A stretch of DNA of 64,000 bases from Eubacteriales bacterium (GTDB taxonomy: Bacteria > Bacillota > Clostridia > Christensenellales > UBA1242), in assembly GCA_018384735.1 (NCBI GenBank), contig JAHAXB010000034.1, forward strand, positions 19,659 through 83,658, given 5' to 3'. Positions 7,054 through 63,915 of the stretch are shown here, one piece after another. Within the stretch, counting starts at the first letter, position 1, and each line of letters starts with the position of its first letter. A program made the translations under genes and the position numbers. The notes below the pieces were generated by a model. The model saw only the letters and a program-made list of their open reading frames with translations. It searched no databases and had not been told where the DNA came from.

Positions 7054-7618
7054 TATCGTGATCCTCCCCTTCCACTAAGTGGTTGTAAATAAATTCATAA
7101 ATTTCGGGCGCCATATCTTTCCAACGTGCAGCAGCCCGCATCGCGTCGGCACGTGATGGCACACGTAATTTCAACTCCATCAAATTATACGGACGACCGG
7201 TATAATCTTTAATCATAAAAACTGCCGTTTGGGTACCATCCGAATTTTTGAAATAATCGATGCGATACTCTTGGCTACGTTTCATGCGCAATTTATTTTC
7301 GTCGGTATATTTGATAATGCTTTCACGAATGGAAGCCGGAATTTTCGTCCAAAAATGAGCTAAACAGTCGCGACCATCTTTGGTCAAAGTATACATTAAA
7401 TCTCCCGCAGAAGTCTTCCCCACTACAAACTTTACGTCCACAATTTGCGCCAAAGCTTCGCGGTAATCCATGTAGGACATCAAGTCCGGATTGGACATGA
7501 TAATTTCGGACAAAGTATTTTCTGACAATGGAATATCCATCTTTTCAAAGATGAAAAGCAAAATTATTTTGCGAGTTATCTCATCAGCAACAAAATAAGT
7601 ACTACGATTAGTGTTCAC
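7040..7618 (-). CDS. DUF4364-like putative transcriptional regulator (recalled family, uncertain)
   Basis: 192-aa intact ORF whose ends overlap both valS and the TSCPD gene. The family assignment is from memory of Clostridial DUF4364 proteins only. Confidence 0.4.
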   Translation of the reverse strand: MNTNRSTYFVADEITRKIILLFIFEKMDIPLSENTLSEIIMSNPDLMSYMDYREALAQIVDVKFVVGKTSAGDLMYTLTKDGRDCLAHFWTKIPASIRESIIKYTDENKLRMKRSQEYRIDYFKNSDGTQTAVFMIKDYTGRPYNLMELKLRVPSRADAMRAAARWKDMAPEIYEFIYNHLVEGEDHDNASV

Positions 7619-61628: not shown

Positions 61629-61686
61629 CAGTCAATTTGCTTCATGCTTTAATCTGTGCTAGACTGAGCCAAACAAGGAGAAAAAC

Positions 61687-63249
61687 ATGAAAGCAATACA
61701 AAAAGACAAACAAATCATTACGGAAAAAATTCATTCTGCTGATTATATTAAGTTGGACTACCACTCCACCTGGAAAAAGATGGCAGCACTTTTACAAAAA
61801 ATGGAAAGCTTGTTAATGGAATTAAAGCCATATCTTTCTGCCACTCAATTTATTGATTTGATGCGCGAAGAAAGTATTCCTACCGAACTTTGTGTTAAGA
61901 TTGAAAAAATCGTACCCAAACTTTATCGTGAGAATTCCGAAGCCGGTCGCAAAGCATTGGAATTGTATATTTTCTTGGACGAAATCGTGGTGCCAGACTT
62001 TTGTGGCGCTTGGGAATTGGAAGATTTCAGTTACACTCTGCACGCGTTGAAAAACCCGATTTTAAAAGAAGCCACCCAAAAATGCACCGCCGAAGTCCAA
62101 GCGAAGAACTACCTAAAAATTACCAAAGGCACTACCCCAGAACAAACCTTACACAACGAAGAAGTTGCCATTAACCAAAAGATTGACGAATTAAAAACAG
62201 CCTTAAAACCCGCTCTGCCCAATCGAGTTTATACCGACTTAGCCAAAGCAAGTCCGGAAGGAGCCATGGAAATTTTGGGTTGCGTAATTCCCGAATTATA
62301 CGCAGATAACAAAACCACTGCTTTCAACACCGCGATTGAGTTGCGCACGGTCATTGACTGTTTATACTACAGGCTGGTTGATAAAATTAGAGAAGAAATC
62401 GACAAAGTCGAAGAAAGCGATATTGAAGATTTATTTATTAACGAAGATTGCTGTCAACACAAATGCGATTGTTGTCATACCGAAGATTCAGACGATGAAA
62501 TTGAAATGGACGAAGAAAAGATTGCCAACCGCGAAAATTATGCTAAGGAACAAGCACTATATGACAGTTATGTTAAGGACTACACTTCTGCTGGCGAACT
62601 TTTCGATTTTGAAGATTATGAGCCATATCAAGATGTGGAAGAAAAAACTTACCAAAAGTTCTGTAAACAATTCCAACGCGAAAGCAAGCAATTACCAACA
62701 GACTGGGAAGAACGCCGTCAAGCGATTCAAGACGAAGTCAACCGATTGAAAGCAGATATCAAGCCATACTTGACCACAGCAGGCTATAAAAAATTATTAG
62801 CCACCAACAGTCCTTTTGATATCCAGTTCCTGTTACAGGAATTAGGTACGCGCCTTTTGTTATGTGGAAAAACCGATTGCGTGGTACCAATGGCTAAATT
62901 ACATGCTTACGCACAGACCATTGTCGATGATTTTGCCATGCATGATTTACCATTTGACGAATGCGAAAGTAAAGTTTTGGCGGAAGATTATTTAGGCACT
63001 TACGACAGTTATAACGATGCAGTTTATCAAAAAATGCATGAACTAAAGACCGCCCTCAAACCGTACATGGAACCAAAAAAACATCGCGAGTTTTTATTAG
63101 CTGACCCATTGAACACTTTATTAACCGTTAGTGGTTTGATTAACGAACTTTATTATGACAAACACGATAAAGCGGCAACAACGATTGCGATTGAATTAAG
63201 AAAACTGGTGCAATGTCGTGTCGTGGAATGTTACCGTTATGATTTCTAA
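61687..63249 (+). CDS. Hypothetical protein (520 aa) built from four ~75-aa helical repeats with a central acidic/Cys-rich linker
   Basis: The repeat signature ELK(T/A)xLKPY...ELY.D....(T/A)AIELR..V.C is seen four times. The linker contains DCCQHKCDCCH. SD AAGGAG. Confidence 0.6.
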   Translation: MKAIQKDKQIITEKIHSADYIKLDYHSTWKKMAALLQKMESLLMELKPYLSATQFIDLMREESIPTELCVKIEKIVPKLYRENSEAGRKALELYIFLDEIVVPDFCGAWELEDFSYTLHALKNPILKEATQKCTAEVQAKNYLKITKGTTPEQTLHNEEVAINQKIDELKTALKPALPNRVYTDLAKASPEGAMEILGCVIPELYADNKTTAFNTAIELRTVIDCLYYRLVDKIREEIDKVEESDIEDLFINEDCCQHKCDCCHTEDSDDEIEMDEEKIANRENYAKEQALYDSYVKDYTSAGELFDFEDYEPYQDVEEKTYQKFCKQFQRESKQLPTDWEERRQAIQDEVNRLKADIKPYLTTAGYKKLLATNSPFDIQFLLQELGTRLLLCGKTDCVVPMAKLHAYAQTIVDDFAMHDLPFDECESKVLAEDYLGTYDSYNDAVYQKMHELKTALKPYMEPKKHREFLLADPLNTLLTVSGLINELYYDKHDKAATTIAIELRKLVQCRVVECYRYDF

Positions 63250-63251
63250 AT

Positions 63252-63371
63252 AAAAAAACACGAGTTGCCCCGTGCTTTTCAAGCGCATACTTATGAGGCT
63301 ATGCGTTACCTAATTATTTAAGTGCTCAATATGGCTGTGCATCGCCGGTTTTTACGACTTTTCCTTGTCGT
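63252..63371 (-). ncRNA. Candidate sRNA 1 (~120 nt), family unknown
   Basis: Promoter TTGACT (63405-63400)-N16-TGgTATAAT (63383-63378). The transcript would start ACGACAAGGAAAAGUCGU and end at hairpin AGCACG-N8-CGUGUU plus U7, which also serves the convergent CDS. No credible ORF. Confidence 0.5.
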
Positions 63372-63410
63372 GCTAGTATTATACCACATACAATTTCAAA
63401 GTCAACACTA

Positions 63411-63737
63411 GAAAAAGAAATAAGCCCCCCGTCACACATGGAGGGAGGGCTAATCGTTAACCTGTGGTATTTTAACCGCCACATGCGGTAATTGTTTATT
63501 GGTCCACTGCGGCAGGACCTCTCCACTTCTTCGTAATCGTCCACTAAGGCAGGACCTCTCCAAACGTTTTTGGTAGAGCGGATTTGCGCTTTACCCAACT
63601 CTACTGGTGCACCGCGGCAGAACCTGATGTGTGTGATCTCACTTCTGCCCTCACACTGGCAGGGCTAACGCCTTGGAAGTTAGGCTACCTACCGTTCTTT
63701 CAGACTTCCGACAGGTTTTAACGACTATCCTTGTCGT
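63411..63737 (-). ncRNA. Candidate structured RNA 2 (~327 nt), family unknown
   Basis: Promoter TTGACA (63772-63767)-N18-TGtTATTTT (63748-63743). It has a 5'/3' closing helix and multiple internal helices. The terminator is AGCCCUCCCUCC...GACGGGGGGCU followed by a U-rich tail. Confidence 0.55.
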
Positions 63738-63779
63738 GTATTAAAATAACACATCACAATATATCTTGTCAACTACCAC

Positions 63780-63880
63780 AAAAAAGCAACCCCTTGCGGG
63801 ATTGCCCTATATTCACTGCTCCGTTAAAGGTCGTGCAACACCTAATTACAATCTTGCTTTTGTTAGGCCGCAAGAGCCTA
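63780..63880 (-). ncRNA. Candidate sRNA 3 (~100 nt), family unknown
   Basis: Promoter TTGACA (63913-63908)-N16-TGgTAATAT (63891-63886). Terminator is GCAAUCCC-GCAA-GGGGUUGC followed by U6 (63780-63805). Confidence 0.5.
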
Positions 63881-63915
63881 TGGCTATATTACCACAAATA
63901 ATTTTAATGTCAACA

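Follow-up and report, generated by a model that had tools for sequence, protein, structure and literature searches.

A non-coding RNA with two orphan ToxI-type repeats in an Eubacteriales bacterium

Unit B, a 327-nt RNA on the minus strand (63411-63737) of the 64-kb stretch analyzed here (64,000 nucleotides from an Eubacteriales bacterium, hereafter the window), contains two modules that sequence comparison places in the ToxI family, the repeats that precede ToxN genes in toxIN/AbiQ type III toxin-antitoxin systems. Since the window holds no toxN, the repeats of unit B constitute an orphan antitoxin inside a longer RNA. Modules that are ToxI copies without a toxin gene make a stand-alone antitoxin or decoy the most likely explanation, rather than a new class of large RNA. 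In our view, the transcript of 327 nt is probably an orphan RNA antitoxin of type III, one that works in trans by supplying additional antitoxin, as a module against addiction or as a decoy.

Unit B is delimited by a promoter-like site at one end and a terminator at the other. The promoter matches the consensus at 10 of 12 positions, and its −10 element ends 5 nt before the 5' hairpin, which places the start of the hairpin at about +1. The terminator, a G+C-rich hairpin with a U-rich tail, is paired in the minimum-free-energy fold; CCCUCCCUCC is present at 63449 on the minus strand. The output of a simple terminator scan did not include it. Two open reading frames that overlap unit B (90 and 37 aa) were ruled out as coding, as the repeats fall in different frames: the period of 37 nt is not a multiple of 3, so that the nucleotide sequence is conserved and not a protein. 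The 90-aa frame also traverses the terminator plus the next promoter and has an in-frame stop in a copy on a phage contig (L029). Unit B thus looks like a genuine small-RNA gene, non-coding and with its own predicted promoter and terminator, which agrees with what had been proposed from the letters of the DNA. Its features are as follows.

63743..63772, minus strand: sigma-70-type promoter (TTGACA, 18-nt spacer, TATTTT, TG before the −10)
63714..63737, minus strand: 5' hairpin ACGAC-AAGGAUA-GUCGU with UAAAACC tail (model R2, 30.1 bits, E 7e-6)
63711..63715, minus strand: CCUGU, 5' strand of the closing helix, pair probability 0.55-1.0 with ACAGG
63576..63713, minus strand: 5' domain, with GGAAGU/ACUUCC, GUGUGA/UCACAC, GUAGAG/CUCUAC and the GGUGCACC palindrome; no detectable homolog
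63562..63575, minus strand: A-rich leader ACCAAAAACGUUU, just upstream of repeat 1
63525..63561, minus strand: ToxI-type repeat 1 (37 nt), GGAGAGGUCCUGCCUUAGUGGAC + GAUUACGAAGAAGU
63489..63524, minus strand: ToxI-type repeat 2, GGAGAGGUCCUGCCGCAGUGGAC + CAAUAAACAAUUA
63475..63489, minus strand: hairpin ACCGC-AUGUG-GCGGU, then UAAAAU; present in the constrained fold
63461..63465, minus strand: ACAGG, 3' strand of the closing helix, pairs with CCUGU
63411..63450, minus strand: terminator, stem GCCCUCCCUCC...GGGGGGC, then UUAUUUCUUUUUC

The repeats are the best defined part of the RNA. The sequence-only reading had described two 24-nt modules (plus-strand 63502-63525 and 63539-63562), and these were confirmed to be 22/24 identical with a period of 37 nt. 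The pattern GGAGAGGTCCTGCCNNAGTGGAC occurs twice in the 64-kb window, against 0.00 occurrences expected by chance. When the window was searched with model R1, whose seed consists of 16 repeats that are all toxN-linked, repeat 1 scored 41.3 bits (E 8e-6) and repeat 2 scored 36.0 bits (E 7e-5); besides these two, no match in the window was better than E 1.7. The repeat hairpin has a 4-bp stem and a 9-nt loop of the form U-R-C-N-N-N-A-G-U (UGCCNNAGU), giving UGCCGUAGU or UGCCUUAGU, and every invariant family position is kept in both repeats. That the modules fold as (G)GUCC-N9-GGAC hairpins had been suggested before and is supported by covariation. The module hairpin aligns without gaps with the three ToxI repeats of plasmid pAW63, in which the loop U, C and AGU are invariant while four of the four stem pairs are changed on both sides and 100% of the cells are paired.

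The family assignment was reached from two directions. An RNA-first search with the pattern GAGAGGTCCTGCCNNAGTGGA yielded 23 metagenome loci. Eight loci (L158, L159, L160, L162, L164, L165, L168 and L169) have 1-3 repeat copies with a period of 34-41 nt, a promoter directly before the repeats, and a terminator followed by an open reading frame after them. The encoded protein is a ToxN/AbiQ toxin according to Pfam (PF13958, E 9.6e-36), PADLOC (AbiQ, 4.5e-33) and PDB matches (4ATO, 7D8O, 2XD0, 4GLK). A protein-first search found the same repeats upstream in every toxN-homolog locus that was retrieved by protein identity (L174, L175-177, L258, L259/260 and L261). Locus L174 is a complete toxIN locus with a period of 37 nt. 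It stems from a metagenome-assembled genome (MAG) that also contains L012 and belongs to a relative of the window organism, the 181-aa proteins of the two being 85% identical. Repeat 2 of unit B has the same 23-nt core as the L174 repeats (87% identity over 62 nt in blastn), and nhmmer aligns positions 163-252 of unit B with 2858-2948 of L174 (E 6.5e-12). The modules, for which no family had been recognized from the letters, are hence assigned to the ToxI repeats of toxIN/AbiQ type III systems. A pairing of the GGAGAGG motifs with the terminator, proposed at the same time, is not conserved, as the toxN-linked loci have unrelated terminator sequences.

The surroundings of the repeats can also be compared with canonical toxI loci. 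The leader ACCAAAAACGUUU is collinear with the CCAAAAUAAUU leader of these loci, and A-rich spacers flank each repeat on both sides (ACCAAAAACGUUU, GAAGAAGU, CAAUAAACAAUU). ToxN and AbiQ cut at A-rich sites (PMC5086642), and the leader of unit B is a candidate ToxN cleavage region. The ACCGC..GCGGU hairpin occupies the position of the canonical toxI terminator and is followed by UAAAAU without a U tract; a plausible terminator lies about 25 nt further on. From the comparison with canonical loci this hairpin is possibly a decayed toxI terminator.

The toxin gene itself was not detected. A tblastn search of the 64-kb window with two ToxN proteins gave no toxN, the best hit elsewhere in the window being unrelated (E 0.009), and the search for ToxN homologs returned no toxin labeled as from the window's own MAG. 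Measured by the definition of type III loci of Blower et al. 2012 (PMC3401426), unit B has a tandem array of short repeats with homology to repeats that precede toxN. A ToxN/AbiQ gene does not follow it, and its promoter is not at the start of the repeats, which is a preferred and not a strict feature (PMC3401426). The distance from promoter to repeat 1 is 176 nt, whereas in canonical loci the promoter abuts the repeats. Both the missing partner in the window and the remote promoter are observations that count against the orphan-antitoxin reading.

The 3' half of unit B is collinear with the antitoxin part of toxIN/AbiQ, comprising the A-rich leader, the two 37-nt repeats and a hairpin, and this part is set in a longer RNA that opens with the phage-type 5' hairpin, continues with unique sequence of about 145 nt and has its own terminator. 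If unit B acts as an orphan antitoxin, the following mechanism can be considered. Transcription of the RNA would be constitutive. An endoribonuclease of the ToxN family, whether from another site in the genome or brought in by a plasmid or prophage, could recognize the repeats and cut the A-rich spacers ACCAAAAACGUUU, GAAGAAGU and CAAUAAACAAUU. The toxin would then stay bound to the released units of about 37 nt in an inactive protein-RNA complex, as in ToxIN. The effect in trans would be an extra supply of antitoxin, an anti-addiction module or a decoy, following the same logic as pseudo-ToxI in phage escape from ToxIN abortive infection. The 5' hairpin and the closing helix may mainly stabilize the RNA.

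Toxin-less copies of the repeats are found elsewhere. Two loci (L171 and L172) have repeat arrays plus a terminator and no toxN. Single repeats occur within larger non-coding stretches in L028-L030, L151, L152, L154-L156, L161, L163 and L170, and several of these loci are IMG/VR viral contigs in which the repeat is located beside tRNA arrays. In locus L151, where one encoded protein matches phage ParB-like families, there are tandem promoter-sRNA-terminator units like those of the window, and one of these units holds a single ToxI repeat. On phage contig L029 a ROOL RNA lies about 5.7 kb from the module copy. A relaxed module pattern gave extra matches that were attributable to chance only, in coding DNA, and an Rfam search of L042 and L043 at E up to 1 gave one noise hit only. 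Pseudo-ToxI of phages is an RNA mimic of ToxI that suppresses ToxN (PMC3475682). The wild-type pseudo-ToxI of phage PhiTE, with 1.5 repeats, did not suppress ToxN in an over-expression assay, and the phage escaped from ToxN only after expansion to 4.5-5.5 repeats (PMC3475682). That unit B has two repeats only, seen beside the inactive 1.5-repeat version of PhiTE, is a further observation against the orphan-antitoxin reading.

In its genomic setting unit B is the middle of three tandem small-RNA units, A, B and C. The units are contained in a block of about 2.3 kb that is an insertion, missing from the close relatives L003 and L004. In relatives, a terminator and mnmG are found where the block would be, and mnmG is directly convergent with the 181-aa gene. 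No copy of unit A, B or C was found in 22 genome loci around homologs of this upstream 181-aa gene, and homolog searches for unit A found none. Downstream of unit B follow unit C and a convergent open reading frame of 520 aa.

63780..63913, minus strand: unit A (promoter TTGACA-16-TAATAT, RNA of ~100 nt, terminator 63808-63783)
63250..63405, minus strand: unit C (promoter TTGACT-16-TATAAT, RNA of ~120 nt, terminator)
61687..63249, plus strand: 520-aa ORF, repetitive and acidic, convergent with the RNA units and in the same strain-specific insertion

In its promoter and leader unit C shares 80% identity with the toxIN promoter of L174, and it carries the same 5' hairpin motif as unit B (63347-63371; R2 41.3 bits). 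The 520-aa protein has no Pfam, PHROGs or PADLOC match and only four distant homologs, which occur in other genomic contexts and in loci without a related RNA. The motif UAAUUAGGUnnnGCA, common to units A and C, led no further: its 80 viral matches are essentially all due to chance.

These data allow an explanation in which unit B is the relic of a toxIN locus after toxin loss and rearrangement, perhaps still transcribed yet functionless, with repeats that are intact since the loss was recent. The absence of toxN downstream and in the window, the hairpin without U tract at the canonical terminator position and the strain-specific insertion would all be in line with such a history, and the resemblance of the unit C promoter and leader to a toxIN promoter suggests that pieces of toxIN have been reshuffled. 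However, no trace of a toxN pseudogene was found in the window, both repeats have retained all invariant family positions and their A-rich flanks, and the promoter, with its near-consensus elements and TG before the −10, and the terminator are still in place. Furthermore, comparable orphan copies are present in many phage and metagenome contexts that are unrelated to one another, and this speaks for selection on copies that lack the toxin. We therefore regard a functionless relic as rather unlikely and prefer the orphan antitoxin.

The 5' hairpin is not specific to this RNA. Judged from its homologous copies, it is a member of a widespread, as yet unnamed promoter-proximal motif of Firmicute phage transcripts, with 190 occurrences in 100 phage loci and no match in Rfam. 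The motif is defined by a covarying 5-bp stem, a loop AAGGAAAA and a tail (U/A)AAAACC, and is located at about +1 to +7 of the transcript; the loop of unit B, AAGGAUA, is one nt shorter. Among 93 unique copies 46 are located 5-14 nt after a strong −10, compared to 1.2% of random positions. Stem covariation is strong across 76 distinct homologous copies, which confirms the earlier view that this is a genuine RNA hairpin. Several other identities were considered. The hairpin followed by UAAAAC has what we take to be a resemblance to Cas13-type repeats, and a role as mimic of such repeats was not adopted, no arrays being seen. A CsrA site (ACARGGA) was not adopted either, as by a count by eye GGA is not over-represented in unit B. 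Mimicry of ToxI_Bt in the MG-B1/QCM11 arrays was abandoned because the real pAW63 ToxI_Bt sequence is unrelated to the motif. An identity with the pRNA of phi29-like phages was rejected on the position of the pRNA gene, which is at the left genome end in these phages (PMC6266182).

The phage connection of the hairpin suggests another explanation, in which the three units, possibly with the 520-aa ORF, are a captured phage fragment. Unit B would then be a composite anti-defense RNA, a scaffolded decoy whose 5' domain contains further unrecognized decoy or regulatory modules. Such an origin could account for the fact that units B and C both begin with the promoter-proximal hairpin motif, for the similar tandem-unit layout with one ToxI repeat in locus L151, and for the insertion of the whole block relative to close relatives. 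Against this, no phage gene is found in or beside the insertion, the 520-aa ORF being without a PHROGs match, no integrase or att-like repeats were seen in a search that was not exhaustive, and apart from the hairpin no phage homologs were found for units A and C or for the 5' domain of unit B. A composite RNA of phage origin is accordingly improbable.

The folding of the RNA was the main subject of the sequence-only reading, which proposed an ornate, closed, multi-helix architecture. The segments on which it was based are all present on the minus strand where they had been described: GUCGUUAAAACCUGU (63725-63711) and ACAGGUUAACGA (63465-63454), which are complementary, the strands of the internal helices GGAAGU/ACUUCC, GUGUGA/UCACAC and GUAGAG/CUCUAC, the GGUGCACC palindrome at 63613, and the repeats. 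The full-length RNA has a minimum free energy of −110.4 kcal/mol (z = −2.7), and 1 of 100 shuffled sequences folds as well. The RNAfold ensemble gives a probability of about 0 to each of the three 6-bp internal helices, and likewise to the stems of the modules and to the 5' hairpin; only CCUGU/ACAGG is favored (p 0.55-1.0). Enforcing the comparatively supported elements, i.e. the 5' hairpin and the module stems, costs 9.2 kcal/mol. In this constrained fold the closing helix and GUGUGA/UCACAC are present, and GGAAGU/ACUUCC and GUAGAG/CUCUAC are absent. Of the proposed molecule-closing pairing CCUGU/ACAGG thus stands, occurring in both folds with support that is thermodynamic, and the remainder is not favored. 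Real features of the wider architecture are the repeats and the hairpins, both at the 5' end and in the modules. The multi-helix map is a possible reading that none of the results supports.

Homology is confined to the 5' hairpin and positions ~135-288. No homologs were found over positions 28-134, and the 5' ~145 nt had none in any collection searched: nhmmer on all loci gave matches only from about position 135, two 5'-domain segments used as exact patterns gave zero matches in viral contigs, and blastn against GenBank phages and plasmids gave no match. Consequently, neither conservation nor covariation stands behind the proposed internal helices. The orphan-antitoxin reading leaves the 5' ~145 nt unexplained, which is a further point against it. 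The 5' half of repeat 1 has partial complementarity to positions 45-71, with which repeat 1 is paired in the thermodynamic ensemble; the module hairpins there have a probability of about 0. The repeats might therefore be masked, which is also an observation against the orphan-antitoxin reading.

An independently functional large structured RNA, ribozyme-like or of the ROOL/OLE/raiA class and with structural or ligand-binding hairpins, is very improbable, since the length of 327 nt, the z-score, the robust closing helix (p up to 1.0) and the presence of ROOL and other non-coding RNAs on module-bearing phage contigs are outweighed by internal helices of near-zero probability, by Rfam searches that gave no match, whether with the gathering threshold or with E values up to 10, by the absence of full-length homologs in 22 related genomes, viral contigs, metagenomes, GenBank phages and plasmids, and by modules that are explained by a known family working as processed units of ~37 nt and not as a large fold. 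Two tRNAs alone passed the gathering threshold of Rfam 15 in the window, and what else appeared in or close to unit B with E values up to 10 was noise. Most of what would speak against the earlier suggestion has thus been found: modules of a known family, proposed helices in a domain without homologs in the collections searched, and a strain-specific insertion.

A more specific form of the orphan antitoxin can be put forward tentatively. Unit B may be a scaffolded trans-acting anti-toxin RNA in which two complete ToxI units are held in a closed, stabilized carrier. This carrier might consist of the phage-type 5' hairpin, the unique 5' domain that can mask repeat 1, and the closing helix. Conceivably, the island of three separately promoted RNAs is a means by which the bacterium, or else a cryptic mobile element, neutralizes ToxN/AbiQ toxins on their arrival. 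If this is true, then, taken together with the single ToxI repeats within tRNA and non-coding RNA regions of phages, type III antitoxin RNA mimicry, so far known mainly as the laboratory escape route of one phage, would be a common natural strategy of counter-defense and anti-addiction in gut and rumen Firmicutes and their phages.

Type III antitoxins are usually annotated only within toxin-linked arrays. Here the same repeats stand alone in two settings, a longer chromosomal small RNA and single copies in non-coding regions of phages. If active, these copies would be natural RNA decoys against ToxN/AbiQ abortive-infection toxins, and the single experimentally shown case, PhiTE pseudo-ToxI, would be extended to many uncultured gut and rumen phages and bacteria. 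Unit B and the ToxN of the related MAG form a concrete testable pair. The 5' hairpin motif, being widespread, covarying and outside Rfam, merits separate study. More generally, where short tandem hairpins recur every ~35-38 nt with A-rich spacers between them, a comparison with type III antitoxins should precede the proposal of a new structured-RNA class.

Among known systems, ROOL, GOLLD, OLE and raiA RNAs resemble unit B in being non-coding RNAs of a few hundred nt from Firmicutes, but unit B differs from them in having no covariance-model match, no full-length conservation and no multi-helix covariation. The toxIN/AbiQ systems are much closer. Their ToxI shares with unit B the tandem direct repeats of 34-38 nt, the (U)UGG before the repeats and the A-rich spacers between them, which are the cut sites of ToxN-family enzymes; identical repeats precede PF13958 genes in metagenomes and in a relative of the window organism. 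The structurally characterized relative is ToxI_Bt of Bacillus thuringiensis plasmid pAW63 (complex PDB 4ATO). It likewise has a 4-bp hairpin with a 9-nt loop, UACCGUAGU compared to UGCCGUAGU or UGCCUUAGU in unit B, with a period of 34 nt instead of 37 nt. Unlike toxIN, unit B is not followed by a toxin gene, 176 nt separate its promoter from the first repeat, and the repeats are part of a 327-nt RNA that also includes an additional 5' hairpin, a domain of ~145 nt found nowhere else in the searches, and a closing helix.

Pseudo-ToxI of the Pectobacterium phage PhiTE (PMC3475682) is similar in that toxin-less ToxI-like repeats are present in an intergenic non-coding locus, with a proposed neutralization of ToxN in trans. 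The orphan copies in the IMG/VR contigs L028-L030 closely fit the PhiTE pattern, whereas unit B is located on a bacterial chromosome, in a strain-specific insertion without phage genes. The wild-type PhiTE locus has 1.5 repeats in the DNA and less than one full unit in the RNA; unit B, in contrast, has two apparently complete units with A-rich flanks.

Positions 63915-63250 of the window carry, in minus orientation, three small-RNA units in tandem, and the 327-nt RNA (unit B) is the middle one. Every unit has its own sigma-70-type promoter and terminator. The window itself is a chromosomal contig from the MAG of an uncultured 'Eubacteriales bacterium'. The features are:

63913-63886, minus strand: promoter of unit A, with the terminator at 63808-63783
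63772-63743, minus strand: promoter of unit B, with the RNA at about 63737-63411
63405-63378, minus strand: promoter of unit C, with the terminator near 63275-63252
61687-63249, plus strand: 520-aa ORF, convergent with the RNA units on their downstream side

Upstream of the RNA units, on the same strand, lies a conserved 181-aa gene. The closest relatives, whose copies of the 181-aa protein are 92-94% identical, have a terminator after this gene and convergent mnmG immediately beyond it. The block with the 520-aa ORF and the three RNA units (about 61629-63915) is missing in the relatives' loci L003 (3540-3600) and L004 (3540-3610), where the shared terminator alone separates the 181-aa gene from mnmG; this makes the block an insertion of about 2.3 kb specific to the strain. 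It carries no obvious mobility gene. The 520-aa protein has no family match in Pfam, PHROGs or PADLOC and only four homologs, which are distant, 745-789 aa long and found in unrelated contexts. It is acidic, with a CCQHKCDCCH cluster and apparent internal repeats ELKxxLKPYL...ELY, noted by eye in the translation. Units A (63780-63880) and C (63250-63372) share the motif UAAUUAGGUnnnGCAnnnCC, whose pattern gave chance-like matches only in a scan of viral contigs.

The complementary segments and repeats named in the sequence-only reading are all present at their proposed positions. The two 24-nt repeats of unit B (22/24 identical, 37-nt period) represent a pattern found twice in the window against 0.00 expected by chance. 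The module hairpin proposed for them, (G)GUCC-N9-GGAC(C), is real: the window repeats align without gaps with the ToxI repeats of pAW63, an antitoxin of solved structure, AAAAUUGGUGUAACUCUACCGUAGUGAGUACCAA, with 4/4 stem pairs changed on both sides and 100% of cells paired, a level that neither shuffles nor slid registers approach. The 9-nt loops are nearly alike (UACCGUAGU versus UGCCGUAGU or UGCCUUAGU). The module is the hairpin conserved in a ToxI-family antitoxin.

The module was found in three viral contigs by an exact-pattern scan and at 23 loci by a metagenome scan. At eight loci (L158, L159, L160, L162, L164, L165, L168, L169), 1-3 tandem copies with a period of 34-41 nt start right after a promoter; a terminator hairpin comes next, and then an ORF beginning (M/V)xIVYIDSxYTDYL. 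The product is a toxin of the ToxN/AbiQ type (Pfam PF13958, E 9.6e-36; PADLOC AbiQ, 4.5e-33; PDB matches 4ATO (ToxN_Bt), 7D8O, 2XD0 (ToxN) and 4GLK (AbiQ)). The order promoter, RNA repeats, terminator and toxin defines a type III toxin-antitoxin locus (PMC3401426), and these eight loci show it. At L162 an extra ToxI-type repeat (869-906, 42.5 bits) lies downstream of toxN, besides three upstream copies. In the reverse direction, toxin homologs were collected by protein search and their contigs fetched by protein identity; all of these (L174, L175-177, L258, L259/260, L261) have the same repeats upstream, with compensatory stem variants such as GUCC/GGAC to UUCC/GGAA. A covariance model seeded only with 16 toxN-linked repeats (R1) gave exactly two matches in the 64-kb window, at 63525-63561 (41.3 bits) and 63489-63524 (36.0 bits). 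It is close to certain that the unit B modules are ToxI-type antitoxin repeats. Rfam has no match for the region, neither with the gathering threshold nor with E relaxed to 10. The duplicated modules are real hairpins, but of an already known family.

The full-length folding energy of unit B is -110.4 kcal/mol (z = -2.7). From the helix map drawn by hand, only the closing helix CCUGU/ACAGG is favoured in the ensemble; the three internal 6-bp helices have a probability of about 0, as do the 5' hairpin and the module stems. Enforcing the latter two costs 9.2 kcal/mol and retains the closing helix; GUGUGA/UCACAC then appears, and GGAAGU/ACUUCC and GUAGAG/CUCUAC are absent. Since the 5' hairpin and module stems have zero probability yet strong comparative support, neither the thermodynamic fold nor the hand-drawn map is a reliable guide. 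The minimum-free-energy structure joins positions 45-71 to the 5' half of repeat 1, a pairing that could reflect masking of the repeat or chance. Positions 28-134 of unit B have no homolog across all collections searched, so that covariation speaks neither for nor against the proposed closed, ornate architecture. Searches with units A, B and C by nhmmer in 22 loci of related genomes gave no match, and blastn against GenBank phages and plasmids gave none either.

A relative contains the complete locus. Contig L174, from MAG GCA_023666145, which also includes L012 with a 181-aa protein 85% identical to that of the window, shows in order a promoter, CCAAAAUAAUU as leader, a pair of 37-nt repeats, a terminator and the gene for a ToxN of 182 aa. 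The 23-nt core of its repeats equals that of window repeat 2, the repeat pairs of window and L174 are 87% identical over 62 nt (blastn), and positions 163-252 of unit B align with the locus (nhmmer, E 6.5e-12). The 3' half of unit B is thus collinear with canonical toxI: its A-rich leader precedes repeats 1 and 2, and a hairpin stands at the canonical terminator position. In unit C, the promoter together with the start of the transcript (63364-63409) is 80% identical to the toxIN promoter and leader of L174 (2811-2856), and this similarity suggests that the promoter cassettes of the small-RNA units derive from toxIN loci. L010, L012, L018 and L174, deposited under MAGs labelled 'Prevotella sp.', are probably mis-binned or mislabelled: with the 181-aa protein 67-87% identical, they are clear members of this Clostridia lineage.

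Unit B starts with ACGAC-AAGGAUA-GUCGU-UAAAACC (63714-63737), and unit C almost identically (63347-63371). This hairpin belongs to a motif very common in viral contigs, with a 5-bp covarying stem, the loop AAGGAAAA and the tail UAAAACC, which opens many phage transcripts just downstream of strong sigma-70-type promoters. Its covariance model (R2) found 190 copies in 100 sources (99 phage loci and the window), often several per phage (L031-L145, including L042 1395-1525 and L043 1497-2377); in the window only units B and C match. The proposed 5' hairpin is borne out by strong covariation of the stem: both sides change in 85 cells, compared with 29 in shuffles, and 0/500 shuffles attain the observed value. 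Nearly half of the unique copies (46/93) lie 5-14 nt after the -10 element of a strong promoter, a placement that 1.2% of random positions share, and 41/93 precede a GAAAGG-type Shine-Dalgarno sequence and start codon. Two phi29-like Bacillus phages, MG-B1 and QCM11, have the motif in tandem, along with a second hairpin and spacers of UAAAA, within a gap that lacks annotation on the upstream side of the SSB gene; this region is not the pRNA, whose gene lies at the left genome end (PMC6266182). The motif has no Rfam match. We take it for a leader or stabiliser element close to the promoter in transcripts of Firmicute phages, and its presence in units B and C supports a phage or mobile origin of their promoter cassettes. 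On viral contig L031 it stands upstream of a 22-aa hydrophobic ORF, and a type-P5 twister ribozyme is also present (7390-7465; Rfam, 49.8 bits).

Unit B looks like a genuine RNA gene, and an orphan ToxI-type antitoxin or decoy RNA is its best explanation; that it acts as an antitoxin in trans we hold to be somewhat favoured. The chief competing explanation is that it is left over from a toxIN locus and has no function. There is no toxN gene within the 64-kb window, and compared with canonical toxIN the promoter lies 176 nt upstream of the repeats instead of at their start, and the repeats are embedded in a larger RNA. A-rich sequence flanks each repeat on both sides (ACCAAAAACGUUU, GAAGAAGU, CAAUAAACAAUU), and ToxN-family enzymes cut such sites (AA/AU, A/AAAA, A/AAA; PMC5086642), so cutting there could release two complete units.

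Toxin-less copies also occur elsewhere. L171 and L172 consist of arrays and a terminator with no toxin, and single repeats occur within longer non-coding stretches (L028, L029/L030, L151, L152, L154-L156, L161, L163, L170). The large phage contig L029/L030 has its single ToxI-like repeat flanked by a tmRNA-like element on one side and a tRNA array on the other, with a ROOL RNA about 5.7 kb off in the same L029 stretch (L029 75-721; L030 3925-4004, 5005-5076). Its tmRNA-like element is a tRNA-like domain of ~80 nt that lacks the mRNA portion (Rfam tmRNA, 51.4 bits), and one tRNA, with anticodon UUA, is labelled tRNA-Stop by ARAGORN. On L151, which also codes for a ParB-like protein of phage type, promoter-sRNA-terminator units stand in tandem just as they do in the window. 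A precedent for toxin-less ToxI copies is the pseudo-ToxI of phage PhiTE, where RNA mimicry suppresses ToxN once there are enough complete repeats (PMC3475682).
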